Part shown: piece by piece, positions 27,252-50,454 of the stretch
How positions within the stretch are numbered: the stretch's first letter is position 1
Layout of the letters: the number at the start of each line of letters is the position of its first letter
Origin: Candidatus Latescibacterota bacterium
Lineage (GTDB): Bacteria; Latescibacterota; UBA2968; UBA8231
Assembly (NCBI GenBank): GCA_965203355.1
Contig: OZ241889.1
Coordinates: 2,464,001 to 2,528,000, forward strand
Length of the DNA stretch: 64,000 nt
Direction of reading: 5' to 3'
Notes under the pieces: generated by a model
What the model saw: the letters and a program-made list of their open reading frames with translations, nothing else
Told to the model about the DNA's origin: nothing
Database searches by the model: none
Program-made: the position numbers and the translations under genes

Positions 27252-30200
27252 ATGATACATGCGAAGTTGTCCGTGCCGCGCTTGGCTTTTGTGCCTTTTT
27301 TGCTGGCGGCCATTTTGGTGTTTGGCTGGGCCGGGGAGGCTGCGGCTCAGACCGAGAACATCGACATATCTGTTGATCGGCGTTCCGTCCGCGAGGATGG
27401 AGGGGCGCAAGATATTATGATAACAGCCGAATTACGCGACGCTGACGCGAAGGCAAAGGTCGATCTTTATCTTCCGCTGAGTCTCGTCGGTGTCACGTCC
27501 CGCTATCTCAACGATTTATTCACCATATCCTTTCCCTCTTTGGTGATTAAGAAGGGCGAGCGCAAGGCGACCGGGACGATCACCATAAACCCGACAAACA
27601 ATAATCGGATTGGAATTAACGCGGCCAACGCTTCGGCGGATGTTGATACTCTGACCATAACGGGTACGGTCGATACGGCTAAGGTTAAAATGCGGGTTAA
27701 TCTTCCTATCGTGATTGACGTGGGCGGTACCACTGGAACCATCTTCGAGAAAGGCAAAACCGCCGCGTCCTATACTGAGAAAGAGACTGGTGTTACGGGC
27801 GTCTTCTATATTGAGCTGATTGACGACGATGTGTTCGTCCCCAATATCGATCTCTCTGCTTCGCCGGCCAAACTCAGCAAGCAGGCGGATGCGACTCCGA
27901 TTGAAGTGACGGCGCTGTTGAAGGGCGGCTCGTTGGCGAGCCACGACCTTAAATCCCAATTGGTTGTTTCTTCTGGCAGTGACTTCTTGACGCGCGATGT
28001 GGATTACTCGCTGAGGGGTTTGGGTTCTCTGACCATTCCAAAGCGGAGGATCGACGCGACGACTACGTTCACCCTGGATCCGAATAATAAGGATGGCACG
28101 ATCGAGCTGAGATCCAGTCCCGATACGCTGAAGGTGGTTTTCAAGAAACGGGTGAACAGCGCGGGTAAGCAGGTTCGGTTCGACTTAAGGCATGAAGGGA
28201 CCTTAAATGGAGATAATTATGTGCATTCGACAAAAGACGATGTCAAGCTTAACGAATACATTAATAACACCAATGCTACCATCGGCATTGACTTCAACGG
28301 CGATGGGGATATTGGAACAGAGGCTAATACTATTGAGGGGACTAAGATATTTGGGAGAAAATTCGTCGCATGGGCGAATGAAGACTTTAGCACCTCCGAC
28401 AAAATCCCGGCGGGGACCGTCTTGGTAGAAGCAGACTTGGGGATCGACTTTTTCGAGGATGACGATTTGTTGGATACCTATGTGGTGCCCGCCGGAAAAG
28501 TGCTAACGGAAGCAAGTCACGCCTTACTTGATGTAGGGGCCAAGACTGTCACCGGCCATGACCCTGTTCTCAAACTCCGTATTGACTTTAACGGCGATGG
28601 GCAATTCACTGACAGTGCCTTCGCCGATGGGACAGTGATAAAGCATGTGGACTCTTTTGTCATTCCTGTTGTGGTCAATCCGGGCACCATCACGGTCGAG
28701 GACGTTGCAGTCGCGACGATCAAGAATTTTACGCTGAGTCCGAAGACGATCCGCGAGGCCGCCGGCGCGACCGACGTTACGATGACGGTTGAATTGGCGA
28801 AAGCCTTGACCGGCGCGAAGGCGGTGGACTTTCAGATTACGGCGGGTCAGGGGACGCGCGATGTGCATTACGAAGTCGAGGTGATTGAGGGGCTGACGAT
28901 CCCGGTCGGCGATACGAAAGGCACGGCGACGTTGCGCGTCACGCCGGTGGACAACAGCGGTGTGAATGATGCGCGGACGTTCACGGTAAAAGCGAAGGTC
29001 GGCGACGAAGAGGATCAGACGAAGGATCAGACGTTCACGATCACGGACGATGAGACGTTGAGCGATGACATCACGCTGTCGGTCAGCCCGAGCGAAATCA
29101 AAGAGGACGCCGGGGCGACGACGGTCACGGTGACCGGCACGTTAGATGGCAAAGTGCTCGACGCGGATGCGACGATGACGTTGGTCGTGGATGGTACGCC
29201 GGACAAGTCGGCGACGCGGGACGCGGATTATACGGCGGTGCTTAGCTCGCTGACGATTCCACGCGGCGAGATCACCGGCTCGACGACGATCACGGTCACG
29301 CCCGTCAACGACGGGAAAGACGACAACGACGAGACGATCACGATCAAGCAGTTGACGGACAATCTCAAGAACCAAGACGACGACAAGATCAAGGTCGGCA
29401 CCACGAAGATCACGCTGAAAGACGCGGCGAAGATGGATGATTCTTCGGATACGCCGGCGGACACGGGCCGACCGAGTTTCGGCACTGGTGCGTTAGCCTT
29501 TGAAGCGACGGTGGGGCAGGCGTTCAGCGAGGTGTTGCCCGCGGCGACGGGCGGCCAAGGAACGCTGCGGTACCGGGTCTCGTCGGACCTGCCGATAGGT
29601 CTGTCGTTTGACACGGCGACGCGGACGCTTTCGGGCACGCCGACGCTGGCGGGCATGTCCTCGGTTATCTATGTGGCACTCGATAGCGATGGCGACAGCG
29701 GCGCAAAGACCTTCACCATAACGGTCAGCGAGGCCCCGCCGGTGACCGTGGGCGTCGCCAGCGTAATGGCTTCGCAATCGGCCGTGCGCGAAAACGGCGA
29801 CACGGCGGAAATCCGAGTTACGGCGACTCTGTCGGAGGCGGCCCCGGCGCCCGAGACGGTCCGTTTCACGATTGTGCCGCCGGCCAGCGGCGCGATGGCC
29901 ACCCGCGACGTGGATTACACGGCGGCGTTGGTGGGGACGATCACCATTGCGGCCGGGGAAAAGGTCGGTTCGACGACGCTTTTCCTGTCGCCGATTGACA
30001 ATGCTTCGGCGGACGGTCATAAGCACTTGGGTGTTCGGGCGGTGTCTTCGGGCGGTTGGGGGCAGGTGGACTTGCGGATTTCCGACGACGAGACCGCCAG
30101 CACGTCTTTGGTGGTGTCGGTAATGCCGAGCGCGATCCCCGAGTCGGCGGAATTGACGGAAGTGATGGTCATGGCCGCGCTGGACGGCAAGCCGTTGGCC

Positions 30201-33161: not shown

Positions 33162-34406
33162 CTACAACTTACCGATCAGGACGATCCGATTGGTGTTGGT
33201 GCCTTTTGTGCGGTTTTCTACGCCCCAGCAGTTTGCGGTCTTGGTGAATGTCTGATCGTTGACCAACACCATCAGGGGCTTGAGGCCAGCCTCCATGGCC
33301 GCGGGTACGACGAGGGTTTCGAGGAGGATTGTGCCATGGCGGACCTCGCCCACCTCAAAGGCGACAAAGCCCCCGCTGGCGAGAACCCGGTGCAACTCTC
33401 GGAAAGTGCGGGTCATCGCGGCCTGCCAGTCGGCTGGTTTTTTTAATTGCCATATAGCAACCTCCTTGGCGTCAATACCGTTAAACCAGCAGCGCAGCCA
33501 GTTGTCTGCTTGATAGTTGACGATGTCCAAAAAGGGGGGCGAGGTAACGGCGAGTTGGATGGATTCACTGGCGATGGCGGCGGTATTGTCAGATGAGCCG
33601 GTTATAAGCAGGGGGCGGTTCGCCGTCAGCATTTCCAGATCGCGCGCTTGCAGCTTGCTCAGTAGCGATCGCGTCTTGCGGAGGATGATGGCCTTTATGT
33701 CGCGTTCAGGTGGCACTTGAGCGCGTTTTTGGTTGATGCGTTTTTGCGACTCGATGGACACCGCCTGATTCGGCGGCAGCGTATATACGGAGAAAAATCC
33801 CGGCGAGTGCCCGGTCAGGCGGTTGGTCGCCACCATCTGAATCCACGCATCGACGCGGTCTGGGCGGCGCGTGCGGAGGTGGGAGCGCAGATTGGCGATT
33901 TGGCGGAGCGTGTTGGGGTGATAAAAAACAAGGAGCTCGTCCCCAACCTCGCTCGTTTTGTCGAGGTCCAGCGCGGCCAAGCGCGTTTCTACCTCGTCAT
34001 AGGTGGGTGGATCCAGGCGAGGCCCGACTAGACGCTCGCTGAGCGGATTTATGTCGCAGCCGATGGGACCGCGGCCCAACAGCGCTGCTTCGAGGACCGT
34101 GGTGCCGCGGCCCATGAAAGGGTCGTACACCGCGTCGCCGGGTTGCGTCAAGCGGCTGATGAAAAACCTCGGCAATTGCGGCTTGAAACAGGCGCGATAG
34201 GAGACCTCGTGGAGCGAGTGCGCGGCGCGTTGCTTGGCGGTCCAGAACTCGTTGACGTACACCGGAATGGAAATGGCCGGATCGGGAAAGTCGAGGGTTT
34301 GCGTCTCTTTGCCAAACTCCGCAAAGGCTTGGATGTCGGCGGCGAATTCTTCGGCGTTTAGGGGGCGTGGTTGCGGCGGCGCGTGGGGGAATAGGGAGGT
34401 AGTCAC
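33162..34406 (-). CDS. Site-specific DNA methyltransferase (N4C/N6A; motif I before motif IV)
   Basis: DPFMGRGTT (SAM binding) followed by TSPPF (catalytic). Confidence 0.85.
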   Translation of the reverse strand: MTTSLFPHAPPQPRPLNAEEFAADIQAFAEFGKETQTLDFPDPAISIPVYVNEFWTAKQRAAHSLHEVSYRACFKPQLPRFFISRLTQPGDAVYDPFMGRGTTVLEAALLGRGPIGCDINPLSERLVGPRLDPPTYDEVETRLAALDLDKTSEVGDELLVFYHPNTLRQIANLRSHLRTRRPDRVDAWIQMVATNRLTGHSPGFFSVYTLPPNQAVSIESQKRINQKRAQVPPERDIKAIILRKTRSLLSKLQARDLEMLTANRPLLITGSSDNTAAIASESIQLAVTSPPFLDIVNYQADNWLRCWFNGIDAKEVAIWQLKKPADWQAAMTRTFRELHRVLASGGFVAFEVGEVRHGTILLETLVVPAAMEAGLKPLMVLVNDQTFTKTANCWGVENRTKGTNTNRIVLIGKL

Positions 34407-35140
34407 GATAGGCTCCTGAGTAAAGCAAGGGCCTGGCGGCGGTTTATCTTTGACGCTTTACCAAGCTGCCCTTGAAGCCACCAAGTTCGCACCGCGTCCG
34501 CCGGAATCTGCCAGTACGGCACGGCGGGAAAACGTGCGATGTCAGAGACAATATAGCCGGCGACCTCGTCTAACTTCCGTAGAAAGCCATGCTCTTCAAA
34601 GTGCCTTCCTGATCCAACCATATAGCTGGGACAAAAATAGATACCATGTTTAGACACGCTGCGGACTTCCCATTTGCGGCCTGTGGAATCCAGTACGTCA
34701 TATCCTGCTCCTTCGCTACGGGCTAGCGAGCCGTTGAGCACTTGACAAGCTATGCGTAGCTTGATTAGAAAAGATACTCGGCGCCCATTGGTGAAGTAAG
34801 CGTACACATCGTCTTGCGGAATTTGCAGTGCTTCCGATAACTGGCGAACATCCCACTCTAATAAACCATTCGGCACCGCCCTGTTCCCGTTTTCTTTCCG
34901 CAATGTATGATCTAACTGCGAAAGAAACTGCTTGAGATCTTCCTTGCTCAAGCTAAATGCCTTTACATCTGCAACGCCCAAACGACCCGTAATATCGCGG
35001 AGCACATAGTCCTCCGTTTCCTCGAATTCACCTTCCATCATCGCGTTTTCTGCCCATTCTACCAAGTCTTCAAGGGACAACTGGCACTGTAAGTATGTCC
35101 TTATTCTGTCTGCGAGTACTTCAGATGTGATGATTTCCAC
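34403..35140 (-). CDS. Hypothetical protein: small helical N-domain plus candidate nuclease domain
   Basis: Overlaps the MTase start by 4 nt; AT-richer; GYDVLD..GRKWEVRS resembles a PD-(D/E)xK variant. Confidence 0.55.
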   Translation of the reverse strand: MEIITSEVLADRIRTYLQCQLSLEDLVEWAENAMMEGEFEETEDYVLRDITGRLGVADVKAFSLSKEDLKQFLSQLDHTLRKENGNRAVPNGLLEWDVRQLSEALQIPQDDVYAYFTNGRRVSFLIKLRIACQVLNGSLARSEGAGYDVLDSTGRKWEVRSVSKHGIYFCPSYMVGSGRHFEEHGFLRKLDEVAGYIVSDIARFPAVPYWQIPADAVRTWWLQGQLGKASKINRRQALALLRSLS

Positions 35141-37078: not shown

Positions 37079-40000
37079 ATGAGCGACCTACCCTTTAAGG
37101 ACATAATCAGCAAGCATTACACGGTCTTTGATGGAATGGGCGGGATGTACGTGGAAGACCTCTACCAAGACCACCGAGGGTTTCTTTGGGTCGCCACAGC
37201 CGACGGGGGTGTCAGCCGGTTCGACAGTGTGAATTTTGATGCGTTTGGCCCCAAGGATGGGTTGCCCGATCTGACGGTCATGGCCATTGCCGAAGACGCT
37301 GATGAGCGGCTTTTGTTCGGCACGTTTGGCAGCGGGATTGCGGCGTACGACGGGCGCGGCTTTCAGGTGTACACCACCGAACACGGCTTGCCTTCCAACG
37401 AGATCGTGGGCCTGCAAGCCCAGCCGGATGATTCGGTGTTGGTGCTGACCGGCGCGGGGGTGGCGTGGTTTGAACGGGGCCGCTGCATACGGAGCATAAC
37501 CGAGGTGGGCGGCCAACCATTGGGGCGCGTGTACGATATGGCCACGGACGCGACCGGCACTACTTGGCTGGCGACTTGGACTCGCGGCGTCGTCAGCTTG
37601 GATGGGCGGCGCATGGACACCGGCGACAAAGCCCAATGGCCGTGGAAATTCGCGCAAGACGCCGCTGGCCATCTGTGGATTGCCTTTCACTATGCCGGGC
37701 GGGACGCCTTCATTGGCCGCTACGATGCGCGGAGCGAGCAGTTCGCCTTCGTGGAGGTGGGCGAGCGGGCCGAGCGGACTGTGCAGCAGGGGACGCGGCA
37801 TGTGCGGGCGGACGATAGGGGTTGGATATGGATGACGCGCCGGGGCGTCCTCTGCTACGACGGGCAGGTATGGCACCGTTTTTCCACGGCTTTACCAGAC
37901 CTTGACTTTTCCAGTACGCGCCTGGCATACGAGGATCGCGAGGGCAATATTTGGATCGGGCTTTGGGGGGGTGGGCTGATATTTTGCGACCCGGCCAGCC
38001 TCCGCTACTACACCGAAGCCGACGGCCTGCCCGACAACGAGGTTCGCCACTTAGGCGAAGATGCTAAGGGGCGGCTGTGGATCGGTACGATGGACGGTAT
38101 GGCCTGCATGGAAAACGGCCAAATCCGTCCGCTTGATCAGGCTGAAACCGTGTCGGCGCTGATGGTGGACAAAAAGGGGCGGGTCTGGAGCGGCGGAGAC
38201 GCCGGGCGGGTGTACCAATGGGAAGGCCAGACGCCGCACGCGATTGCGGTGGCCGAAAGGGCCCACGCCCAAGCAATCACTGGGCTGTGCGAAGGCGCGC
38301 AAGGGCGTATCTGGGTCGGCACGGCCCGGGGCGGCTTTGGCTGGATAGAGGGCCATCGCTTCACTCCGGTTGGCGCGTGGGACATGGATGAGTGCCATGC
38401 CTTGCTGCAAGACCAAAGCGGAACGTTCTGGATCGGTTGCCGCGCCAGGATACCGGCACTCTATTGGTACGAAAACGGTCAACGCCTCCCGGCGGCGATG
38501 GTCGAAGCGGAGACCATCGCATATGTCAATGTGCTGTGGGAACACCACAACATCGTGTGGGTGGGCACGGCCAAAGGGCTTTTCGCGTACGACGGCTCGT
38601 CCGGGCAGGTGCGCCACTTTACGGTCGATCAATCGGAGCTGTCGGCCAACGGCATCTTGGCGCTGGCAGCGGACCGGCAGGGTCAGGTGTGGATCGGGAC
38701 CAGTGGCGGAGGAGTGCTGCGCTACGATGGCGAGACCTTCCGAAACATCCGCTTAGGACCTTCGGTGCTCGGCAACATCGTCGAGGCCGTTTTGTGCGAC
38801 CGCGATGGTCGGTTGTGGTTTGGGACGCGGGGGGGATTAGTGGCCTACCAGCCGGGCGATGTGCCGCCGGGCTTGGTCATCCGCGAGGTCTTGGCCGGCA
38901 GGCGCATGGTCGCGCCCGAGGCGGTCTCCTGCCCAGAGGACACCCCGGAAATCCGCATTCACTTTCAAGGGATCAGCTTCCGCAGCGGCGCGGCCGAGAT
39001 GCGCTATCGCCATCGCTTGTTGGGCTACGGCCCGGCCGAATCGTGGAGTGCGTTCACCGCTGCCGATACCGCGATGTACCGCGCCTTGCCGGTGGGCGAC
39101 TACCGCTTTGAGGTGCAGACGATAGACCGCGATAATTTGCAGTCCGAGGTGGTTGGCTTGGACCTCCACATCCTCCCGGACCTCCAAACCGAACATCTCC
39201 GCGTCCTTGAAAGGACCCTGCGACCTTCGCCCTGGGTCGTGCCGAGCCGTAGTCCGGCCATGCAGGAGGTGATGCAAGAAGTCGCGCAGGTTGCCGAGAC
39301 CGATATGAATGTGCTGATATTGGGCGAGACCGGCACCGGCAAGGGCATACTGGCGCAGACTATTCACGAAACAAGCAACCGCTCCGGGCAGTCTTTTGTC
39401 CAAGTCAATTGCGGTGCGCTCCCTACCACGCTGATCGAAAGCGAACTGTTCGGCCACGAGAAAGGGTCTTTTACCGGCGCAAACACCCGCCAGCTCGGTC
39501 GCTTTGAACTGGCCAATGGCGGCGCGATCTTTCTCGACGAGATCGGCGATTTATCGCTGGAGTCTCAGCGGGTATTGCTGCACATCTTAGAGGAGAATAC
39601 GCTGACGCGCGTCGGTGGTCAGCAGCCGATCGCGGTGGATGTGCGGGTCATCGCGGCGACCAACCGCGACCTGCGGCAGGCCATTGCGGAGGGTGCATTC
39701 CGCGAAGACCTATTCTACCGCCTGAGCGTCTTCACGATTGAACTGCCGCCGCTGCGACAGCGACAAGAGGACCTATCGGCTTTGGTGACACATTTTGTGA
39801 ATCGGTCTGCCCTAGATCTCAAGCAGCCAGCGCCGCGGCTAGATGCCGAGGCGAGCGCGGCCTTGTATGCGCATGCTTGGCCGGGGAATGTGCGCGCGTT
39901 AGAGCACGTGCTCCAACGCGCTGTCTTGCTGTGCAAGGGCGGTGTGGTGCGGGTGGAGGATTTGGTGCTGTCGTCGGTTGCGCGGCCGGCGGCTGAAGGA

Positions 40001-40201
40001 CCAATCAGGGACGTGGACAAAGCAACGCCGCCGCCCGAAGGGGGGGACGAAAAGCAGCAGATCCTCGCGGCGCTGCAAGCGACCCACTGGCGGGTCTCTG
40101 GGGTGCATGGTGCGGCGGCGTTGTTGGGAATGCACCCGGAGAAACTGCGTTACCGGATGCAGAAATACGGGTTGCGCCGCCCGAAAAAGCCCGGCACCTA
40201 A
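37079..40201 (+). CDS. Sigma54-dependent enhancer-binding protein with Reg_prop beta-propellers and Y_Y_Y domain
   Basis: Repeated D..G.LW.GT blades, YR..LP.GDYRFEV (Y_Y_Y), [42 protein letters not shown] and a C-terminal Fis HTH. Confidence 0.93.
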
Positions 40202-40215
40202 CGGCCATCGCCGGT

Positions 40216-40280
40216 TGTGTTTTCCACGAAAAACTGTGTTTTTCCACGAAAAATCCGTGTAATTCCACGAAAAAATCGTG
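40216..40280 (+). promoter_or_regulatory. Three tandem direct repeats, candidate enhancer (UAS) sites
   Basis: GTGT-N1-3-TTCCACGAAAAA occurs three times with a ~20-21 bp period, roughly 125-185 bp upstream of the -24 box. Confidence 0.65.
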
Positions 40281-40349
40281 TAGAGCCTTGCATCGCCGGT
40301 GCGTCGGTATCTTTTGCAAAGCTCTGTCCATAATTTTAAGTATCATGTT

Positions 40350-40362
40350 TTTCAAGGTGTTA
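40350..40362 (+). promoter_or_regulatory. IHF-like binding site
   Basis: TTTCAAGGTGTTA has one mismatch to WATCAANNNNTTR; an AT-rich tract lies upstream; it sits between the UAS repeats and the promoter. Confidence 0.5.
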
Positions 40363-40401
40363 GGTCCATCCTGAAGAATTTTTTTGCATACGGCCTAATT
40401 G

Positions 40402-40418
40402 TTGGCACGGAATATGCT
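40402..40418 (+). promoter_or_regulatory. sigma54 (-24/-12) promoter
   Basis: TTGGCACGGAATATGCT with GG and GC 12 bp apart. Confidence 0.85.
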
Positions 40419-40557
40419 ACTATTCTCGTTGAAGGCGCGGCTGATGCGGCAGAAAGGAGGTGATAGGCACTCATATCGGTCGCTGCTCCACGCGGACTTC
40501 CAGTATTGAAGCGGCCGCCGGTCGCGGACGTATTGGACTTTTCAGGAGGTAAGAACC

Positions 40558-40836
40558 ATGCAGACCTTGCAGGAATTCTTCACGTCGTCGAGCGGTTTGG
40601 CTCCGGCTCGTCAGGGGTTGGGGCTGGGCTGGATCATCAGTGCGCTCACCGGGGTCGCCATACTGCTCGGGGCCAAGGAAGCCGATGCCGCCGAGTGCAG
40701 GTACCGCACTTATCTAGATTGCGGTTGGGACGGTTGGTGTGCTTCAAGGACGAAAGGGAAAGAGCCGATCCGGTGCTGCACATTTACAGAGTACGCTGAC
40801 TGTAGCTTTGATAGAAGTTGCTCCTGCGTAGCATGA
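40558..40836 (+). CDS. Small secreted cysteine-rich peptide precursor (8 Cys)
   Basis: AGGAGGT RBS; hydrophobic stretch plus ADA|A cleavage site; mature part C-x7-C-x5-C-x11-CC-x7-C-x5-C-x-C. Confidence 0.75.
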   Translation: MQTLQEFFTSSSGLAPARQGLGLGWIISALTGVAILLGAKEADAAECRYRTYLDCGWDGWCASRTKGKEPIRCCTFTEYADCSFDRSCSCVA

Positions 40837-40868
40837 CGGAGATCGCTTCGTAACTAACCCCCTTTCTC

Positions 40869-40952
40869 TACCCAATGGTGCTAGTGGGCTCCCCGTTGAA
40901 TTCAGCCATAGTCGCCGGGTCCTCTCGGTCAACTCATTGGTGCCATTGGGTA
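40869..40952 (+). other. Long intergenic RNA stem-loop
   Basis: TACCCAATGGTGCTAGTGGG pairs with CTCATTGGTGCCATTGGGTA over 20 bp, including several G-U pairs. Confidence 0.7.
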
Positions 40953-40977
40953 TTTATCGGAGGATAGAGGCCACATC

Positions 40978-43092
40978 ATGTTGGTATTAGCCGTTTGTGT
41001 ATGGGTCGTGCTGTCGGGTCGGGTCGCCGAGGCGATTCGGTGGGATTTCGCCGATGGAACGACGCAAGGGTGGTCGGCCAAAGAAGGTACTATCTGGGGT
41101 GGGCCGCGTGAATTGCACCTGTTTCCGGGCGTGGTCGCAGAGGGTGTGTGGCGGATTGAGACGATGCCCCCCGGCGCCGAGTCTTCCACTCCGAGTGTTG
41201 ATCTCGTTTCTCCGCCGATTGGGTATGATTCGGCCCTGTTCGATCGAGTCTATATCCGCTTCCGCACGGTCCATCCCAGTCCTACGACCGGTGTTTTTTC
41301 GATGACGTGGACCAACGAGCACAACTTCGCTTTGTGGATGTCAGACGACCTTGAAACCAGTTTTGGAATTCTTGCTGAAGACATAACCTATACCACCGAG
41401 TGGCAGGAAGTGGTGTTTGTCTTGGCCGAGCAAGACGATAAGATATGGGAGGGCCTGTTAAAGGATATTCGGCTTTATTTTTATTTTTCGTCCGATTCCG
41501 CTGTGGATCGGGTTGAGTGGCTTGAGATTGACTGGATCGAGTTGACGGGTGTGGAAGAGCAATTACAAGGGGAACTCCCGCCGCCATACGTAGATTACTT
41601 TCGCTTTGCGGCGGGTCTTTTTGCTCCGCCCGTTTTCCATCCAATCGCCTCGGGTATAGGGAACGGCTCTGTCTTTTTAGGCACGCAGGTAGGCGTTGGC
41701 GTATTGACGGACTTGGATGGCGATGGCGATTTAGACCTTTTCGCCCCCTATAATTACCTTCAAAGTGAGTCGGAGTCTGTGCAGCAGCAGAAAAAACTGG
41801 GCTGGCTCATAGCACTCAACGACGGGCAAGGGGGCTTGGAACTAGGGCGCATAGAGGAAGTCGTTACCACCGGGCAGGCGCGTATCGATCCGGCAACCGG
41901 CCGGACGATCGGGACGAATTTAGCGATGGTGGGGGCTGATTTGACGGGCGATGGGCAAGACGAAATCGCGATGTATCAGAATAGTAGTAGTAAGACGGCG
42001 ATAGAGGTTTGGTCCATTGATTCGGAACTCCAAGTTGAGATACTCATGCAGATCGAGGATAGACAGTTCGTGGATGCGGCCGATTGGGATGGCGATGGCC
42101 GCGCTGAATTGTTTGTCGCCGGGGGAGCGAGTAAAATGTTGGAGATATGGGGTTTAGAACAGGGCCTGTGGATCACCGAGAAAGAGGTAGCGGTAGTCCA
42201 AGACCATATCCCCGGCCGAATCGGCGACTTTACTGGTCATGGGGAACTGGAGGTGTTGTGGCTCCCGATTTTAGGGCATGCCCGTACGTGGACTGTGAGT
42301 GCCTTGGACGCGGAGTCTCAGCAAGGCGAGGTGGTTAAGTTCGATGAATATAGGCGGCTGTTAGGCGTGGGCGATTTTGATAGGGATGGACGAGTGGATT
42401 TCCTCACGGAGTTTATACGCGACCAAGTCGAAGGGAGCAAAGGATTGCTCGTGCAGAACGCCGACCCTGCCGAATCGGCGGTGCTGTACGATGAGCGACT
42501 CTTTCGGCTCTCGCCGGTGCTGATGCGGGACCTGAATGCTGATGGGGTCAACGACTGGGTGTTTGTGGGCGGGGATCGGCCTTCGGGCGTTGGGGTCTTC
42601 ATCGAGTGGGGTGGGGGGGTCAAGCCGACCCAAGCGGTGGAGCGGCATCGGTTGGAAGGCCCTGGGACCTATGTGCTTTCTGGGGATATGGATGGCGATG
42701 GCGATCTGGATTTGGTGGTGTTAGATCCGGTTTTGGGTGGGGTGCATGTGCTCAAGAGTTCGCTGGCCGAGCAAGCGACGGCTGTGCAGGCGGCGGCGCT
42801 GGTTCGGCCGGCGCGGTATCGGCTGGGCGACAGTTATCCCAATCCATTTAATCCGGCGGTGGTCATTCCGTTAGATTTGGCGAGGGACGCGCAAGTTGTG
42901 TCGCTGACGGTATATGACGTGCTGGGTCGTCGGGTGCGGCTGGTGTGGGAAGGGTCGCTTGGGGCGGGTCGGCATGGGTTGGTGTGGGATGGCCGCGACG
43001 AGGCTGGTCGTGCGGTGGCGGCGGGGGTGTACATCTATCAGGTCGCAATCGACGGACAAGTAGAAGCAAGCAAGATGACGAAACTGCCGTGA
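40978..43092 (+). CDS. Secreted FG-GAP repeat protein with N-terminal beta-sandwich and FlgD-Ig C-terminal domain
   Basis: Signal peptide; IRWDFADGTTQGW domain; repeated DxDGDGDxD; SYPNPFNP..WDGRD..AAGVYIY..KMTKLP end. Confidence 0.85.
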   Translation: MLVLAVCVWVVLSGRVAEAIRWDFADGTTQGWSAKEGTIWGGPRELHLFPGVVAEGVWRIETMPPGAESSTPSVDLVSPPIGYDSALFDRVYIRFRTVHPSPTTGVFSMTWTNEHNFALWMSDDLETSFGILAEDITYTTEWQEVVFVLAEQDDKIWEGLLKDIRLYFYFSSDSAVDRVEWLEIDWIELTGVEEQLQGELPPPYVDYFRFAAGLFAPPVFHPIASGIGNGSVFLGTQVGVGVLTDLDGDGDLDLFAPYNYLQSESESVQQQKKLGWLIALNDGQGGLELGRIEEVVTTGQARIDPATGRTIGTNLAMVGADLTGDGQDEIAMYQNSSSKTAIEVWSIDSELQVEILMQIEDRQFVDAADWDGDGRAELFVAGGASKMLEIWGLEQGLWITEKEVAVVQDHIPGRIGDFTGHGELEVLWLPILGHARTWTVSALDAESQQGEVVKFDEYRRLLGVGDFDRDGRVDFLTEFIRDQVEGSKGLLVQNADPAESAVLYDERLFRLSPVLMRDLNADGVNDWVFVGGDRPSGVGVFIEWGGGVKPTQAVERHRLEGPGTYVLSGDMDGDGDLDLVVLDPVLGGVHVLKSSLAEQATAVQAAALVRPARYRLGDSYPNPFNPAVVIPLDLARDAQVVSLTVYDVLGRRVRLVWEGSLGAGRHGLVWDGRDEAGRAVAAGVYIYQVAIDGQVEASKMTKLP

Positions 43093-43128
43093 GGATGCGC
43101 TTTTTGACTTGAAGAAGGATAATACGGC

Positions 43129-43650
43129 ATGGGACAGCCTAAGCATCCCTTATACTGGATTTACTCCGGCTTAATTTTGCTATTAATCCCCGTGATCTTC
43201 GTGCTTACGGGCCTTTATGAAAAAAGCCGTCGCCTCCAATGGCCCCTGCCGTCTCTGCCGCCGAAAGAAGTATTGCTGAGCCGACTCGCCGCGCTTGATT
43301 CCACCGCGCGCGATTTCCAGTTAGACGAAGTATATCAGGCTACGCCCGCGCCGCGTTCCGGGGTGCTGTCCGCCTATGGCGTCCTTACTGACGACGAGAT
43401 ATTGGCCTATAGGCTGGTCGTCGTGCGCTACGACATTGCCTGTGCTACCTGCCGCGATTTACTGGCGGGCATCCTCGTTGAGCCGAGCGACGACCGCGTC
43501 GTGGCCGTTTGGCCCTTGAACTCTTGGGAACTGGCCGACGGTCCTTTTGACCCCACGGCATTTTTCACCCAACTAAGCGGAAGGCTCCTCTCTGAACCTT
43601 TGGCCGTAGGCCGAGACATTGATAAGAAGAGGCTGTCGTGTTGCTCTTAG
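43129..43650 (+). CDS. Membrane-anchored CxxC protein with a truncated FMN-binding-like domain
   Basis: N-terminal TM helix, CATC, and FFTQLSGRLLSEPLAVGRDID, but no following (S/T)GAT flavinylation motif. Confidence 0.55.
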   Translation: MGQPKHPLYWIYSGLILLLIPVIFVLTGLYEKSRRLQWPLPSLPPKEVLLSRLAALDSTARDFQLDEVYQATPAPRSGVLSAYGVLTDDEILAYRLVVVRYDIACATCRDLLAGILVEPSDDRVVAVWPLNSWELADGPFDPTAFFTQLSGRLLSEPLAVGRDIDKKRLSCCS

Positions 43651-45821
43651 CCTTTTGCACTGGCTTGCTGCTCTTGCGCGGCCCTGCTGGGGCGATTCGG
43701 TGGGACTTTGACGATGGGACGACGCAAGGCTGGGGCGCGAAGAGGTCAATGAGCTCGGGCGGGGAGCATGCCTTTATTCCGTTGTCTGGGTCTGTGGAAG
43801 TCGGCGTCTGGCGGATTAGTGTCTTCCGCAGAGATGATGCTAGTGGAGCCGCGGCGGAGGTGATTTCTCCTACGCTCAATGTGGATTCGCATCTGTTTGA
43901 CCGGGTGCGGCTTCGCTTTCGCTTGGTGCATGATAGTCCTATCCAAGGCGTCTTATCATTCCGCTGGACCAATCAGCACAATCTCAGGTCCCCGGGTATG
44001 GATCCTCTATGGCCGCCCCCACTTAAGAAACAGTTCGTTCTAAGGGCAAACGGCTTTTGGGGTGCATGGGTCTATACGACCGAATGGCAAGAGTATGAGT
44101 TTTCGTTGATCGACTTCGAGAAAAATCCCTACGGGTACTATCCCTTATGGGAAGGGCTGTTGGATGATATTCGGCTGACATTTGACTTGGAAGATGTGGT
44201 CGATCCACCGGCCGCGCCTCAGGAGCAAGCCTTGGAAATTGATTGGATTGAACTGACCGGCGTGGAAGAAATGTTACAAGGCGAGTTACCGCGTCCGTCG
44301 GTAGCGGCGTTGCCCAATCAAGCGGCTGGCGTGTTTGCGCCGCCGACGTTCTCGCCGGTGGCGCCGGGGTTAGGGTACTTTCGTCTGTTAGGCTACGATC
44401 CGGTGGGTGCTTTGCTCGACTTAGATGCGGATGGCGACTTGGATTTATTCTCGTTTTGGGAGGCTTTAGATCGCGAATGGAAAGGGGGCTGGCTCATGGC
44501 CGGCAACACCGGGTCTGGCGCGTTTGAACTGGCGCGGTCAGAACAGTTGGACCTGTGGGATCGGCGGGTGTGCGTCGGCGATATAACCGGGGATGGTCGG
44601 TCGGAGTTGGTGGTCAGTCTGGGTAGTGCCGAGTGGGCGATCACCGTGTGGTCGGTCGGCGAAGCATTTCAGGTGGCGGCATTGCTGGAGCGGGCGCCGC
44701 GTCGGTTGGTGGATGCGGTCGATTGGGATGGCGATGGGGCTGTGGAAGTGTTTGCCCAAGCGCTGGACGCGCCGTTTTTGGAAGTTTGGGATGTGGTGGA
44801 TGGGCAGTGGGTCTTTACCGAACTGTCGGTGCCGGACTCGGCTTCAGGGTTGGGTTGGGCGCATCAGATCGGCGACTTTACCGGGGATGGTCAGTTGGAG
44901 GTGCTGTGGGGGCCGAAGGAATCGTTTCATTTAGCGGCGTTTGAAGCGGTGAGTTCGTTTCAGGTGGGGCCTTTAGGGTCGGCTGCGGGCGAGGGGCTGC
45001 TCTTTGCGGATGTGGTTCCGTTTCCGCTGCTGGCGGGTCGGTCGGGCGACTTTACTGGCGACGGACAGGTGGATTTGCTGGCGGGCGTGCGCGAGGATGG
45101 GGCTGAGCAACGCAAGGGATTGGCCGTGTGGAGCCACCAGGCCGCTGGCTTGCAGCAAACGGTGCTCTATGGGACGGATTTGTTTTTGCGCTCGTCAGTG
45201 GTGGTTTGCGACTTGGACGGGGATGGGGTGGATGATTGGGTGTTCGTCGGGGGCGATTATGCGTCCGGCTTTGGGGTGTTCGTGGAGTGGGGTGGCGGGT
45301 TGCATCCGGGCAAACGGGTGGAGTGGTATCGGTTGGCTGGGTTGGGTCGTGCGCGGTTGGCGGCTGGGGCTTCCAGCGGGTTGGAAGGCAACGGGGTGTT
45401 GGTGTTGCCGGGGGATGTGGATGGCGATGGCGATTTGGACTTAGTGGTGTTGGATCGCGCGTTGGGGGGTGTGCAGGTGCTCAAGAGTGCGGTGGCCGAG
45501 CAAGCGACGGCTGTGCAGGCTTTGCCGCTGGTTCGGCCGGTGCGGCATCGGCTGGGTGCTAGTTATCCCAATCCGTTCAATCCGGCGGTGGTCATTCCGT
45601 TAGACTTAGCGAGGGACGCACTGGCCGTGTCGTTGACGGTATATGACGTGTTGGGTCGTCGGGTGCGGCGGGTGTGGGCTGGGTCGCTTGGGGCGGGTCG
45701 GCATGAGTTGGTGTGGGATGGCCGCGACGCGGCCGGTCGCACGGTGGCGGCGGGGGTGTATATCTATCAGGTCGCAATTGATGGGCAAGTACAAGCAAGC
45801 AAGATGACGAAGCTGCCGTGA
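43638..45821 (+). CDS. Secreted FG-GAP/FlgD-Ig protein, paralogue of 40978-43092
   Basis: Same architecture (IRWDFDDGTTQGW, YTTEWQE, LEIDWIELTGVEE, PNPFN); the last ~400 bp are highly similar at DNA level. Confidence 0.85.
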   Translation: MLLLAFCTGLLLLRGPAGAIRWDFDDGTTQGWGAKRSMSSGGEHAFIPLSGSVEVGVWRISVFRRDDASGAAAEVISPTLNVDSHLFDRVRLRFRLVHDSPIQGVLSFRWTNQHNLRSPGMDPLWPPPLKKQFVLRANGFWGAWVYTTEWQEYEFSLIDFEKNPYGYYPLWEGLLDDIRLTFDLEDVVDPPAAPQEQALEIDWIELTGVEEMLQGELPRPSVAALPNQAAGVFAPPTFSPVAPGLGYFRLLGYDPVGALLDLDADGDLDLFSFWEALDREWKGGWLMAGNTGSGAFELARSEQLDLWDRRVCVGDITGDGRSELVVSLGSAEWAITVWSVGEAFQVAALLERAPRRLVDAVDWDGDGAVEVFAQALDAPFLEVWDVVDGQWVFTELSVPDSASGLGWAHQIGDFTGDGQLEVLWGPKESFHLAAFEAVSSFQVGPLGSAAGEGLLFADVVPFPLLAGRSGDFTGDGQVDLLAGVREDGAEQRKGLAVWSHQAAGLQQTVLYGTDLFLRSSVVVCDLDGDGVDDWVFVGGDYASGFGVFVEWGGGLHPGKRVEWYRLAGLGRARLAAGASSGLEGNGVLVLPGDVDGDGDLDLVVLDRALGGVQVLKSAVAEQATAVQALPLVRPVRHRLGASYPNPFNPAVVIPLDLARDALAVSLTVYDVLGRRVRRVWAGSLGAGRHELVWDGRDAAGRTVAAGVYIYQVAIDGQVQASKMTKLP

Positions 45822-45869: not shown

Positions 45870-46172
45870 ATGATACGCATTGACACCTTGAATCGCTGCG
45901 GCGACACCTTAACCGTCCAACTCGCAGGGTATATCTATAAGGAGGAGTTCGCCATCCTGTATGATTTCCTAAAATCGCAGGCCGAGGAGGGCGTAACGGA
46001 GGTGTGCATCGTGGCCAACGAAATGCGAAGCCTCAACTCATTGCTCCAGCGCGACGCGGACCGCTTGGCGCAACTGGGTCTGAGGTTGCGCTTTCAACAA
46101 CTGAACGATTCCATAAAGTACATATTAGAATACTGGGGGAAGGAGGCTTGGATAGATGATGAAGATGAATAA
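45870..46172 (+). CDS. Small STAS-like hypothetical protein
   Basis: ~100 aa with a beta-beta(LAG)-alpha-beta-alpha pattern like anti-sigma antagonists; GGAG RBS. Confidence 0.5.
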   Translation: MIRIDTLNRCGDTLTVQLAGYIYKEEFAILYDFLKSQAEEGVTEVCIVANEMRSLNSLLQRDADRLAQLGLRLRFQQLNDSIKYILEYWGKEAWIDDEDE

Positions 46173-47814
46173 GATGTGTGCTTTAGTCGCGATAATCGTG
46201 CTGTGCGGCCAGTCGGTGTGGGCGGGCGAGTGGGTGCAAGCGGGAACGGATGATTTCGCGGCGGGCACTTTTGCCGGTACGCAGATCGACCACTCGGGGC
46301 AGGTGTCGCTGACCTCCTTTCGCGGGGTGAATTTGGCGTTGGATGCGGTAGCTGCGTCCGGGCCGAACACCTTGAGTGGTCGCCGCAGCGTCACCGATGG
46401 CAACCCCGACACCGAGTGGCGCTTTGACAACGCAGTCGAAGTGTTGGGCAAGTGGATTCGCATTGACTTGGGCGGCGACCGCGGCGTCAGCCAAGTGCGC
46501 CTGCTGCCGGGCAAGACGGTGGTCCAACGGCCGCAGTTTTTCGTCAAAGGCTATCGCCTCGAAGTGGCGCGCGAAGCCACGCCCGACGATTGGGTCCTGG
46601 TGGCGCAACAGGCCGAAAACACCCGCCCAACGGTCGATACGTCGGCGGATTCGACGTGGATCGAGACCAAGGCCAACGGGGAGGTGTTGCCCGTGTTGGG
46701 CCGCTTTGTGCGCCTGCGCCTGACGCGGGAGGACCCGCCCAACTGGGTTTCCATCGGCGAGGTGGAAGTGTTTGGCGAGGGCTTTCGCGCCGAAGGTGCG
46801 TTTGAGTCGGCTGTGTTCGATGCCGGGCAGCCGATCAACCTAGGGCGGGTGTGGTTTGCTGGCGATAGGCCGCCGGGCACGGTTTTGCAGGTGCAGTTCC
46901 GCACCTCGGCCGATGGGGAGACGTGGCCCGAATGGCACCGGGTGCCGGCGTGGAATTTGACCGCAGTCGGCGCGGGCGTGGCCCTGACCGAGCCGGAGCC
47001 AGCGCGGTTTGTGCAATATCGGGCGGTGATGGAAACGCGTGACCCGTTGCGGACGCCGCGGCTGGCGCAGGTGGTGGTGGCCTTTGGCGAGGAGCTCTTT
47101 GCACAGGCGGTGGCCGGCAGCATTGCGCCGCCGCGTCCGGTGCTGGGTGCGGAGACCGAGTTTGTCTATACCTTTGACGTGGAAATCGGCCCCAGTGATT
47201 TAGGGTTTGACCGAGTGCGTATTGGCTTGCCCGGGTCGGTGCGACAAGTGCGGTTTGACGGGGCGGTGCTGCCGGCGGATGGGTATGAGGCCGCGTGGGA
47301 CGATGCGGGCATCCACTTGGTGTTGGGAGCCGAGCACCACGTGCGTCGGTCGGGGCGGCTCGAAGTGGAGTTTGCGGCCGTGTTGCTGCGGCCGACGCTG
47401 GCGGTGCGGGCGGCCGTGGCGTTGGGCGCTAGCGCGGATTGGCAGTACGTGCGGCCGGTGACGGACGCGGCGTGGACGTTGGTCGGCGAAGGGGTGGTCG
47501 CTCGCGCCTTGCCGCGCGCTGGCGTGTTGGTGCGGCCCAATCCCTTTAACGCGGCGACTGGCCCGACCCAAATTCAGATCGACTTGGCCAAGGTGCAGCA
47601 CCCGCAGGCCTTGACGGTGGCCCTATACGACTTGGCGGGCCGGAAGCAACGGTTGCTGTGGGACGGGTCGGCCGCGGCTGGGCGCAAGCGCTTGGCCTGG
47701 GATGGCCGCGACAACAGCGGGCGGCGGGTCGCGCCCGGGCATTATCTGCTGCGCGTTGAAATCGACGCGGACCGAGCGGATGTGTGGACCGGGTTGGTCG
47801 GGTTGGTGTACTGA
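46156..47814 (+). CDS. Secreted discoidin (F5/8C)-like protein with FlgD-Ig C-terminal domain
   Basis: Signal peptide; TDGNPDTEW, WIRIDLG, RFVRL, IGEVEVFG; RPNPFN..WDGRD..PGHYLL. Exact start uncertain. Confidence 0.8.
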   Translation: MMKMNKMCALVAIIVLCGQSVWAGEWVQAGTDDFAAGTFAGTQIDHSGQVSLTSFRGVNLALDAVAASGPNTLSGRRSVTDGNPDTEWRFDNAVEVLGKWIRIDLGGDRGVSQVRLLPGKTVVQRPQFFVKGYRLEVAREATPDDWVLVAQQAENTRPTVDTSADSTWIETKANGEVLPVLGRFVRLRLTREDPPNWVSIGEVEVFGEGFRAEGAFESAVFDAGQPINLGRVWFAGDRPPGTVLQVQFRTSADGETWPEWHRVPAWNLTAVGAGVALTEPEPARFVQYRAVMETRDPLRTPRLAQVVVAFGEELFAQAVAGSIAPPRPVLGAETEFVYTFDVEIGPSDLGFDRVRIGLPGSVRQVRFDGAVLPADGYEAAWDDAGIHLVLGAEHHVRRSGRLEVEFAAVLLRPTLAVRAAVALGASADWQYVRPVTDAAWTLVGEGVVARALPRAGVLVRPNPFNAATGPTQIQIDLAKVQHPQALTVALYDLAGRKQRLLWDGSAAAGRKRLAWDGRDNSGRRVAPGHYLLRVEIDADRADVWTGLVGLVY

Positions 47815-47837
47815 CGAAGCCGCTAAGGAGATGCGAG

Positions 47838-50454
47838 ATGCGTTTTTTTACCTGGGTTCTTTTGTCCGCCTTGCTGCTGGCCGGGCGGCCGCTCATGGCC
47901 GACCTGCCCGACGCGACCCCCTCGCGTCACTTCTTGCGCCGCCCGCCCCTGAGTGCTTACGCCAATTACGGCGAGGATCTCTACCGGCCTTATCGCCGCG
48001 AGATCCGCCTAGCCCCGCGCTACGACTTCCTCGGCAACTTTCTCGCCGAGGGCTTCTTAGTCTACGAGTTGGACGAGCAGCGGCCCGGCGGCAGCCGCAT
48101 CCTCAAGGACCGCCTCTATCGCTCGCTCAACAACCTGATTATCGCCCACGATAGCTACGGCCCGTGGCACTGGTCTTTGACCGTGGGCGATGAAGTACGC
48201 ACGGAGTTCACGCCGTTGACCTTGCGACAGGCCGGCTTTAATGGCTTGCGCTGGGATGTGGTCTTTCCGGCCAATAAGATCACCTTGCTGACCACGCGCG
48301 GTTTTGACTCGTCGCTGTTTCCCACGCTCAACAGCTTTTCCGATCCAGTGGCCCAAGGGCGGGGATCGCTCATTGACTTTTTGGAGCGGACCGAGGAAAA
48401 CCCGGTGTACAATATCGCCGGTTACTGGCAGACCCGGATAGGCGATGTGCTGCGCTTTGGCGCGACTTTTGTCAACCAGCATCAGGCCAATACGGCCCGC
48501 GGCAGTGCCGGCGGCTTTTTGCGCGGTGGCCTGCCCTATCCGGCCATGCAGCCGCCGAGCGAAATCACCGTGCGCGTGCGCGACGACTCGCCGCAAAGCG
48601 ACGAGGCCGGGGCCATTGTGTACGACATCGTCCTCGAGCTGGAAGGAGAAGGGCCGGAGGGGGAGGCGACGATCAGCAGCGACCCGGCTGACGACCGCTT
48701 TGCGCCGGGTTTGCAGCCGCAGGTGTTGGGCGGGCGACGCGGCGAGGGCTTCCGGGAAGTGCGCGGCGAGGAGGCGGTGGAGTACCTGTTTGTCGTACCG
48801 GAGGATTTTGCACTGAGTGGGGCGAGAGTGCGGGCGTTAGTGGCCAATGATTACCGCATTGAAGTGGCGCAGCAGCATCCCTTTTTCGACGCGCTGCGCA
48901 ATCAGTTCACGCCGCGCAACACCCCCTTTGAGACGCGCGTGCGAGCGGCTGGAGAGGTGCGAGATTTTTCTAATCGGCGCGCCGTGGAATTCGACTACGG
49001 ATTTTCTACGGGCCAGACGATTTTCGGCTTTGACGCGGAGGCCACGTTTGTCGGCCTGAAGGTGCGCGGCGAATACCAGCGCAATCTGCTCTACCGCCGT
49101 TTCCCGGTGCTGCGCGGCCAGCGCGACCAGCAGCGGGCGGCCGCGTGGTACGTCCACGCGCTCAAGGATCTGGGCCGCTTGGAGGTGGGCGGCGAACTCT
49201 TCCGCATTGGGCCGCGCTACGGCGGCGGGTACGACAGCCGGCGCGGTGGGGTGCGGCTCTACACCGACTTGGGCGGCGAAAGCCGAGATCAGCAGATGCT
49301 ATCGGAGTTTCCCCTAGTGGATGACAACGACGACAACGACCGCTACGCGGACGACAACTTGCGCGATTATCCCAACGGCACCGAGATCGAGTCGGGCGTC
49401 TTTCCCGGGCTGGACGAGGACAACGACAACATCCCGGACGACGACAAAAACGCCAATGGAGTGCCCGATTTTGAAGAGCCGTTTTTGCTGTACTACTCCG
49501 ATCCGCAGGAATTTGTCTATGGCATTGACCTCAACAACAACGGCGTGATTGACGAGCGCGAAAACGACAACAAGCCCGACTACCCCTACGACCGCGACCG
49601 GCGCGGTTTGCACGGCTTTGTCGCCGTGCCGCCGTGGCGCGGGCTGTCGGCCGGGGTGGGCTACTATCGCCAAGAAGAGATCGCCGGGCCGAGCGGTCTC
49701 GCGCTACGGGCGCGTGTCCTATGGCTTTGACGTGCCGCGCTGGGGAAAAGTCCAGCTCGACCACGACAGCAAGCGGGTCGAGGACACGGTGCTGGACTCG
49801 GTCTATGTCTTTCGTGCTGGCGAGAACAACAACCCGGACCAGCCGCCGACGCCCGATGCCTTGCTGATGGCCGACTCGTGGGTCCATACCTCGTTTGTCG
49901 GCACCCGCTTGGCGCGGCTGGACCAATTCCATATCGAAAACAACGCCCAGTGGATACTAAACCGGCAGTTGGCAGCGGATGCCCGCGTCCAGACCTTCAC
50001 GATGGTCAACAATGCCGACTACACATACGAGTTGGCTCGCCTGCGCGTCCAAGCCATGATCAAGCATTTGTACAAGCACGTCACCGCCAGCGATCGGCGG
50101 CGGGCCGTGGAGTCGTGGAATCAGATCGCGCCCATCCTGCGCGTGGATTGGACGCTGACGGAGAACACGTTGGTGCAATTCGGCCAACAGGGGTTGGGGG
50201 TGCCGTTTACGCGCACGTTGTTGCCAGCGCTGGCTTTCCGCTTTATCGACCGAGTGGATCGGGAACGCGCCCTGCGCTCGGCCAGTTCGGTGTTGATGTT
50301 CACGGTGCGCGGCACGTACATCGGCTACACTATGGTCTCCAACACCGGCATTGAACTGCGCCACGAAGAATTTGTCGATCCGGCCGTGGCGCGGACGCGC
50401 AATGGTGGGGTGTCGCGGTTTTTTATCTCGGTCATCGCCGGATACGATCGCTAA
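47838..50454 (+). pseudogene. Large exported, probably outer-membrane protein split by a frameshift near 49688
   Basis: Coding-like ORF 47838-49730 switches frame at QEEIAG|RAVSRYGRVSY into 49549-50454. Signal peptide, Asp-rich Ca-binding-like repeats, amphipathic beta strands. Could be an assembly error. Confidence 0.65.

Follow-up and report, generated by a model that had tools for sequence, protein, structure and literature searches.

A Latescibacterota locus for a putatively doubly cleaved, disulfide-rich peptide and its exported FG-GAP partner

A conserved and apparently undescribed genetic system of the Latescibacterota was recognized in a stretch of 64,000 nucleotides (nt) of contig OZ241889.1 (positions 2,464,001-2,528,000; assembly GCA_965203355.1, Candidatus Latescibacterota bacterium), which is termed the window and whose coordinates are used below. 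The locus carries a sigma54 activator, a small Cys-rich precursor and two large FG-GAP propeller proteins, and it is best read as one copy, partly degraded, of a Latescibacterota system. In relatives, the gene order is a sigma54 activator, a promoter, repeated cassettes of a Cys-rich precursor and an FG-GAP protein with a type IX secretion system (T9SS) sorting domain, a flavin mononucleotide (FMN)-binding/CxxC gene, an A24 prepilin-type peptidase and two thioredoxins. The original prediction, made from the sequence of the window, had listed the activator, its repeats, a site like that of integration host factor (IHF), a -24/-12 promoter, a Cys-rich open reading frame (ORF), an RNA stem and the FG-GAP genes, all of which were found where it had placed them. 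The best reading of their joint product is a disulfide mini-protein payload with a partner that would act as its carrier or neutralizer, likely in competition between strains. The features are as follows.

37079-40201, forward strand: sigma54 enhancer-binding protein with a propeller/Y_Y_Y sensor, AAA+ domain and Fis-type helix-turn-helix (HTH), from Pfam and hydropathy.
40214-40274, forward strand: three imperfect dyads in tandem, spaced by about 21 nt and likely bound by the activator, from a repeat and dyad pattern search.
40350-40362, forward strand: IHF-like site with one mismatch to the IHF consensus, from pattern and promoter alignment.
40403-40418, forward strand: sigma54 -24/-12 promoter, from pattern, with a predicted start near 40429.
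40429-40557, forward strand: predicted 5' untranslated leader with two conserved hairpins, from RNAalifold.
40558-40689, forward strand: precursor leader, residues 1-44, from motif conservation, the ratio of nonsynonymous to synonymous substitution rates (dN/dS) and an AlphaFold helix.
40690-40836, forward strand: mature core of 48 residues with eight Cys (47, 55, 61, 73, 74, 82, 88, 90), from AlphaFold, Cys pattern and dN/dS.
40869-40952, forward strand: 20-base-pair RNA stem (arms 40869-40888 and 40933-40952) between the peptide and FG-GAP genes, folding z -2.3.
40978-43092, forward strand: FG-GAP protein 1, with signal peptide, jelly-roll domain resembling carbohydrate-binding modules, FG-GAP propeller and T9SS type A-like C-terminal domain, from profiles and co-fold.
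43129-43650, forward strand: truncated membrane-anchored CxxC/FMN-binding protein, from homologue alignment, junction near 43623.
43638-45821, forward strand: FG-GAP protein 2, an orphan with no peptide gene directly upstream, from Pfam and paralogue comparison.

The 92-residue precursor with its eight Cys yielded 138 homologues in the first search, condensed to 73 representatives at 50% identity, and the predicted exported, disulfide-rich precursor was upheld. No Pfam or NCBIfam family was common to the 46 divergent precursors, and nothing significant emerged from a PDB sequence search. The leader consists of two conserved parts. The first, the motif F-x-x-S-x-S-G13, which the original prediction had missed, is present in 119 of 120 close homologues, and the second, an A-x-A/S pattern after a hydrophobic helix (residues 26-41 in the AlphaFold model), in 103 of them; G13, A44 and C47 are invariant in the 46 divergent members, and A42 is kept in at least 90%. 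Cleavage by an A24 peptidase is predicted after Gly13 (codon 40594-40596), and A42-x-A44 is likely a signal peptidase I site. The residues ahead of Gly13 presumably resemble those of Flp prepilins. A twin-arginine signal was also considered for the leader and dropped, as most leaders hold a single Arg.

The Gly-ending leader followed by a hydrophobic helix, together with the dedicated A24 peptidase, would also suit a small pilin, either retained in the membrane or assembled into a short filament with the propeller at its tip. This is very improbable, since the leader has neither Glu at +5 nor Tyr at +6 and carries the conserved A-x-A after its helix, and since no pilus ATPase over the cut-off and no secretin occur in five related genomes. 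The searches of these five metagenome-assembled genomes (MAGs), with positive controls, found no match over the cut-off in any of them for PF00437 (ATPase), PF00263 (secretin), PF04964 (Flp) or TIGR02532 (type IV pilin).

Behind the constant leader the core is strikingly variable: in 43 paired genes, identity reaches 76% for the leader as opposed to 26% for the core, and dN/dS amounts to 0.21 for the leader versus 1.02 for the non-Cys core sites (16 disjoint close pairs). The Cys number is even in 112 of the 120 homologues, and Cys are lost in pairs, C47 with C82 in two sequences and C55 with C73 in one. AlphaFold models the core as strand-helix-strand-strand, with a predicted local distance difference test (pLDDT) value of about 85 for residues 51-92. 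Fold searches with the whole precursor model as query returned no Foldseek match at E 0.001 or better and a best Z of 3.5; laterosporulin 3 gave Z 2.7 with a root-mean-square deviation of 4.1 over 42 aligned residues.

Expression of the cassette is predicted to be controlled by the activator, whose Pfam matches are Reg_prop (five times), Y_Y_Y, Sigma54_activat and HTH_8, and whose AAA+ loop reads GSFTGA, of the GAFTGA type, which together with the HTH identifies a sigma54 activator. It has no membrane segment (hydropathy maximum 1.3) and is therefore likely cytoplasmic. A full or partial copy precedes the first peptide in many related loci, and the AAA domain of the activator was the sole PADLOC match. 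The sigma54 layout that had been predicted proved to be conserved in the boxes, repeats and IHF-like pattern of related promoters. The dyad repeats of the window lie at 40220, 40240 and 40261 (spacing 20 and 21), and at least two such units, about 21 nt apart, lie at about -300 to -377 in 20 of 30 aligned promoters, with half-sites that change jointly between loci; the IHF-like pattern is found in 27 of the 30. By itself the -24/-12 box does not exceed chance, with four matches in the window versus 2.4 expected. Within 300 nt upstream of distinct related peptide genes it is found for 30 of 49, versus 0.007 expected per 300 nt, with a pattern that was relaxed after the sites had been inspected, and 29 of these 30 boxes sit 136-166 nt from the peptide start. 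RpoN is encoded in all five related genomes. When homologous loci were checked for a general lack of the small ORF and its promoter, both were seen to recur, and the proposed system stands.

The 5' leader of about 130 nt keeps two hairpins with little covariation (25 pairs, of which three changed on both sides; RNAalifold, 19 copies), and no match to it was found in Rfam. In the loop of the first hairpin lies a strong Shine-Dalgarno-like run (window 40455-40462), about 100 nt ahead of the start, which 18 of 19 aligned copies retain. An upstream frame of 30 codons (40460-40552) was dropped, since no spacing separates it from this run and its start is not conserved in relatives. At the position equivalent to 40869-40952, between the peptide and FG-GAP genes, most relatives have strong stems of unrelated sequence, and the 20-base-pair stem is likely a stabilizer or a partial terminator. 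Other contigs of runs X1, X2 and X4 match parts of the promoter region 40160-40555 with different repeats or flanks, and further copies therefore exist in the same samples. Remnants of the last codons of the activator stand before duplicated promoters in related loci (L003:10134-10217, L010:9499-9597, L013:14021-14215 and L028), which shows that a cassette and its promoter are copied jointly.

Maturation genes are where the window copy departs from its relatives. A CxxC membrane protein with a possible part in redox maturation had been predicted downstream of FG-GAP protein 1; the redox role is upheld for the CxxC family, and the window gene itself is broken, its product being an FMN-binding protein cut short. 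Across 165 residues the ORF at 43129-43650 matches relatives of 192-196 residues with 91% identity, and it then lacks their conserved DGxTGAT end, the DNA switching at about 43623 from the FMN/CxxC gene to sequence that precedes the second FG-GAP gene. Compared with its relatives, the window copy has lost the A24 peptidase, the two thioredoxins and the flavinylation motif through a deletion at about 43623, an absence that the original prediction had overlooked. The window copy is a real deletion derivative, since the junction is reproduced without differences in contigs that were assembled independently from runs X1 and X2 (both of one study; X1 is possibly the source sample), which also ruled out an assembly error; in a contig of run X4, from another study, the same join appears next to a flank of just 20 letters, too short to be counted. 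Related loci L012, L024 and L026 carry broken FMN copies as well.

The flavinylation-type motif G-A-T that the window copy has lost is invariant in 25 aligned FMN/CxxC homologues, and PF04205 (FMN_bind) scores 15-19 bits on the relatives, under its cut-off of 22. A [S/T]GA[S/T] flavinylation motif in extracytosolic FMN-binding domains is described in PMC8238504. ApbE is present in all five related genomes and lies directly upstream of the FMN gene in L103. Intact FMN/CxxC genes of the window subfamily are followed by A24 and then by two membrane-anchored thioredoxins in eight loci of eight genomes, and a second subfamily, about 40% identical, shows the order promoter, A24, FMN gene, two thioredoxins, peptide and FG-GAP array. 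Among 41 peptides in L078-L112, regions picked by peptide match alone, A24 lies within 8 kb of 32, a thioredoxin of 35 and an FMN gene of 25, as judged by neighbour profiles partly built from these loci; the profile labels are approximate (wrong-frame or fused sequences, two in the A24 profile set besides some long frames), Pfam having confirmed A24 in 11 of 43 proteins scanned, 10 of them over the cut-off. From the side of the peptidase, 11 of 14 A24 matches in the five related genomes fall in peptide loci, two of the remainder flank alternative-partner arrays without a detected peptide and one is isolated. Both A24 aspartate motifs are retained in most copies. The thioredoxins score best, below the cut-off, against the ResA, StoA and MauD models, with a weak PedC score as well. 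Maturation of the peptide by A24 and the thioredoxins is judged very probable, and the window copy would need these enzymes from elsewhere in the genome. No plasmid match was found for the A24 protein, and four runs compared with the maturation genes of L002 at 80% gave no long piece over the A24-thioredoxin-thioredoxin segment, a search that a more distant copy would escape.

The usual companion of the peptide in these loci is the FG-GAP protein. FG-GAP protein 1 has 759 homologues, and of 53 distinct peptide genes (L001-L047 and the window), 49 have an FG-GAP gene as their next neighbour within 400 nt, two are succeeded by another peptide and two by neither. Conversely, a peptide stands before 67 of 120 FG-GAP genes and another FG-GAP gene before 32, and one peptide often precedes two to five propellers. 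FG-GAP proteins 1 and 2 share 46% identity; the orphan second protein is 80% identical to a gene in L004 that is located downstream of a broken peptide gene. Pairing is also apparent in divergence, since the identity of the cores tracks that of the FG-GAP N-domain (rho 0.73) and of the propeller (0.70) and not that of the sorting domain (0.07), a pattern that holds under within-genome permutation. The core follows the FG-GAP body rather than its tail, and core and body therefore travel as a single cassette between homogenized flanks.

The export route is suggested by both ends of the partner: FG-GAP protein 1 carries an N-terminal signal peptide, and its T9SS type A tail scores 25.9 bits against TIGR04183 (cut-off 23). 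A peptide fusion is over this cut-off too, and the leader with one to three Cys modules is fused to a T9SS-type sorting domain at L001:12716-13489, L019:13263-14255, L040:9020-9622 (minus-strand numbering) and L079:19126-19992; such fusions indicate where the module would be sent. SprA, PorV and PorU are found in all five related genomes (background on the T9SS is given by PMC12398890).

A physical complex was predicted by co-folding the peptide with FG-GAP protein 1, which scored 0.68 against 0.01 for the best of three controls; among pairs of known outcome, 116 of the 157 solved and 2 of the 215 mismatched ones attained the mark, a calibration that applies only roughly to the custom alignments used, and the controls included no non-cognate paralogue. 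At least 75% of contacts agreed between runs, and the partner pLDDT was at least 70. The peptide is posed in a cleft between the N-domain of FG-GAP protein 1 and the top of its propeller. Against PDB, the FG-GAP profile matched FlgD only, in a part excluded from the co-fold. The 53 predicted interface positions are those most variable among paralogues, with an entropy of 2.24 versus 1.06 bits, and 1.20 for polar non-interface positions. On these models, the peptide probably binds its adjacent FG-GAP protein, and the carrier, receptor or immunity role proposed for the FG-GAP proteins is upheld to the extent that a binding partner is predicted.

The same co-fold fits a different division of labour, in which the FG-GAP protein would be the working part of a surface adhesin or lectin, the peptide would serve as its variable subunit or cap by completing or masking the binding face, and the pair would recognize host or neighbour surfaces. 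The jelly-roll N-domain of FG-GAP protein 1 resembles carbohydrate-binding modules, which is a lead, its Foldseek architecture matches include integrin heads and the UmbA4 lectin, and the presence of PorU makes surface anchoring possible; moreover, one abundant peptide would serve the several propellers that often follow it. This main rival is nevertheless considered unlikely, because in many lineages the peptide and the A24/thioredoxin module occur without FG-GAP genes, beside another partner family or an ABC permease, so that the peptide looks like the core product.

These lineages belong to a wider spread of the system. Of 35 related loci, 33 come from MAGs titled Latescibacterota and two from Gemmatimonadota, and a broader profile matched 36 of 167 Latescibacterota genomes. 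Of five genomes, four gave 8-20 matches each and the fifth three. Sponge metagenome is the label of the runs in which a small fraction of the window's words occurs, and close relatives are present in one such run. The alternative-partner arrays encode exported proteins of 300-340 residues ending in W-[GA]-R-I-K-A (L092-L099, L106, L108-L111, L114 and L115), for which no Pfam or NCBIfam hit was obtained among the proteins scanned, and two such arrays have A24 and no detected peptide. A MacB/FtsX-type permease follows the peptide gene in L103, L104, L105 and L112, with three tandem peptides in L105. The FG-GAP arrays of the second subfamily contain a glycosyltransferase-transglutaminase-like fusion (L086:2636-5134, minus strand; similar 832-residue frames in L082, L084, L087 and L088), a second glycosyltransferase-like gene and a TPR protein, and a function of these in tailoring the peptide or its partner is possible. 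In the Atlas, Poribacteria clusters at 0.86 and 0.82 are leads only, and cluster look-ups for 20 proteins gave no names.

The surface-type fusions of one to three peptide modules with the C-terminal domain, the paired diversification of core and FG-GAP protein and the predicted specific cleft could also be taken as a lock-and-key identity code, with free peptides as strain signals and surface-anchored fusions that bind kin propellers and aggregate cells. Such a code is improbable: neither a membrane nor a signalling domain occurs in the FG-GAP proteins, and no membrane segment in the activator, which leaves no visible signal route, and the orphan propellers would blur it.

In the preferred reading of a payload with a carrier or neutralizer, a cytoplasmic ligand would activate the enhancer-binding protein, and the stem would set peptide output above that of the partner. 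The leader would keep the precursor in the inner membrane during folding, where the two thioredoxins and the flavinylated CxxC protein would form its disulfides, and the dedicated A24 prepilin-type peptidase and signal peptidase I would cut it. Having no sorting domain of its own, the peptide would leave through the T9SS bound to the FG-GAP partner that has one; the partner would mask it, spare orphan propellers may catch the peptides of other strains, and the payload would be used against other strains. Competition is suggested by the contrast in dN/dS between core and leader, the many copies per genome and the FG-GAP genes that follow FG-GAP genes. As a whole, this chain of an A24-matured, disulfide-folded payload carried by a propeller through the T9SS for strain competition falls slightly short of an even chance.

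Several results weigh against it. The residue at +5 after Gly13 is Arg in all 120 close homologues rather than the pilin Glu, a residue that 3 of 68 distinct leaders have at this position. Fold and family searches linked the cores to no toxin fold or family, and their net charge is zero or below in 112 of 120 (zero in the window copy), mostly neutral or acidic. Membrane-active defensins are typically cationic; the suggestion of a defensin- or knottin-like peptide is not supported by the charge, and the fold searches gave no clear defensin or knottin match. The core dN/dS near 1 also fits relaxed selection, exported proteins of 700 residues are unusual as immunity factors, and distant lineages have another exported family as the partner or yielded none. 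The GldM/PorM motor was matched in none of the five related genomes, nor in the control genomes. The make-up of the co-fold alignments and controls counts here too, and interface positions track the core no better than entropy-matched others (rho 0.664 versus 0.669, with 301 of 500 controls as high), so that linkage alone explains the co-variation.

This negative linkage control, along with the ResA-, StoA- and MauD-like scores of the thioredoxins, would be in keeping with peptides that bind metal or act as redox proteins, in the periplasm or after export, that ResA-like thioredoxins and the flavinylated protein hold in reduced form and that are merely linked to FG-GAP genes. The even Cys counts and the loss of Cys in pairs point to disulfides instead, several Cys frameworks and a fast-changing core are unexpected for a fixed metal site, and the co-fold passed; this explanation is accordingly rated as quite improbable, somewhat below the identity code.

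Around the locus, further genes were noted. Downstream, window 45870-49730 holds a 100-residue ORF without a Pfam hit, a protein of F5/8 type that carries a sorting domain, and one resembling the SlpA barrel, the same as in L009 and L018; the last ORF has 648 residues in the window versus about 900 in L009 and may be split. Upstream, window 27252-32891 encodes a 1879-residue surface protein in which Ig-like repeats are combined with a C-terminal domain of this same type, and a DNA methyltransferase gene lies at window 33162-35140 on the minus strand, adjoined by a 245-residue ORF without a Pfam hit.

That no named pathway has this layout was confirmed in so far as a literature search, covering freely available papers without their supplements, found no describing paper; the main text of the Latescibacterota genome paper PMC12993501 mentions neither FG-GAP nor type IX, and that of the HXS paper PMC13128918 neither A24 nor prepilin. 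The boldest formulation is a new ribosomal peptide class whose leader is cut twice and matured by a prepilin peptidase freed from the pilus, while a thioredoxin relay supplied by flavin folds the core and integrin-like propellers carry the payload through the T9SS, as a polymorphic toxin or recognition arsenal of sponge symbionts; it is put forward as a tentative possibility, with a little less confidence than the chain described above. If true, prepilin peptidases would gain a role outside filament assembly, a precursor would be cut on both sides of the membrane, and a peptide free of sorting signals would be exported through the T9SS on a carrier. Sponge symbionts would also offer a large natural collection of disulfide mini-proteins, with predicted receptors to match, in animals where disulfide peptides are usually credited to the host.

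Among known systems, disulfide bacteriocins with dedicated oxidoreductases (PedC/BrcD, MauD; sublancin with BdbAB is a further case) share the conserved leader, the variable Cys-rich core and neighbouring thioredoxin-fold proteins. The core set here has, in contrast, no double-glycine leader or peptidase-ABC exporter and possesses instead A24 and a CxxC protein with a flavinylation motif, its cores are not cationic and its partner is a large T9SS protein. Polymorphic toxin-immunity cassettes likewise show a variable unit between conserved flanks, tandem arrays, broken copies and adjacent cognate as well as orphan partners, whereas the variable unit here is a 45-residue disulfide domain without a known toxin fold and the partner a 700-residue exported protein.

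Gly-ending class III signal peptides of Flp/Tad prepilins are cut by prepilin peptidases, according to PMC4471445, PMC3244431 and PMC4322843, and class III signals have no A-x-A site after the hydrophobic tract in the account of PMC4471445. As in these prepilins and TadV, a short Gly-ending leader precedes a hydrophobic helix and an adjacent A24 peptidase has two aspartate motifs and no methylase domain; unlike them, the present precursors have Arg for Glu at +5, no Tyr at +6, a conserved A-x-A after the helix and a Cys-rich core, with a peptidase of 350-390 residues and no pilus machinery detected. With no Glu at +5, a signal peptidase site and no machinery, the system falls outside type IV/Flp pilins. 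The ApbE-flavinylated redox systems in the main text of PMC8238504 share the [S/T]GA[S/T] motif, a genomic ApbE and thioredoxin-like neighbours; the clusters there are of DsbD/DUF3570/DUF4266 and P19 types, with no CxxC-FMN fusion beside A24, and that text is without Latescibacterota. Unlike the Streptomyces umbrella toxins described in PMC13274773, the propellers here have no trypsin-like domain (by Pfam) and a jelly-roll N-domain, no UmbB/UmbC scaffold was seen, the payload is a mini-protein and export is of the T9SS type; both would combine diversified secreted beta-propellers with a polymorphic payload, and with UmbA4 among the fold matches the umbrella toxins serve as an analogy only.

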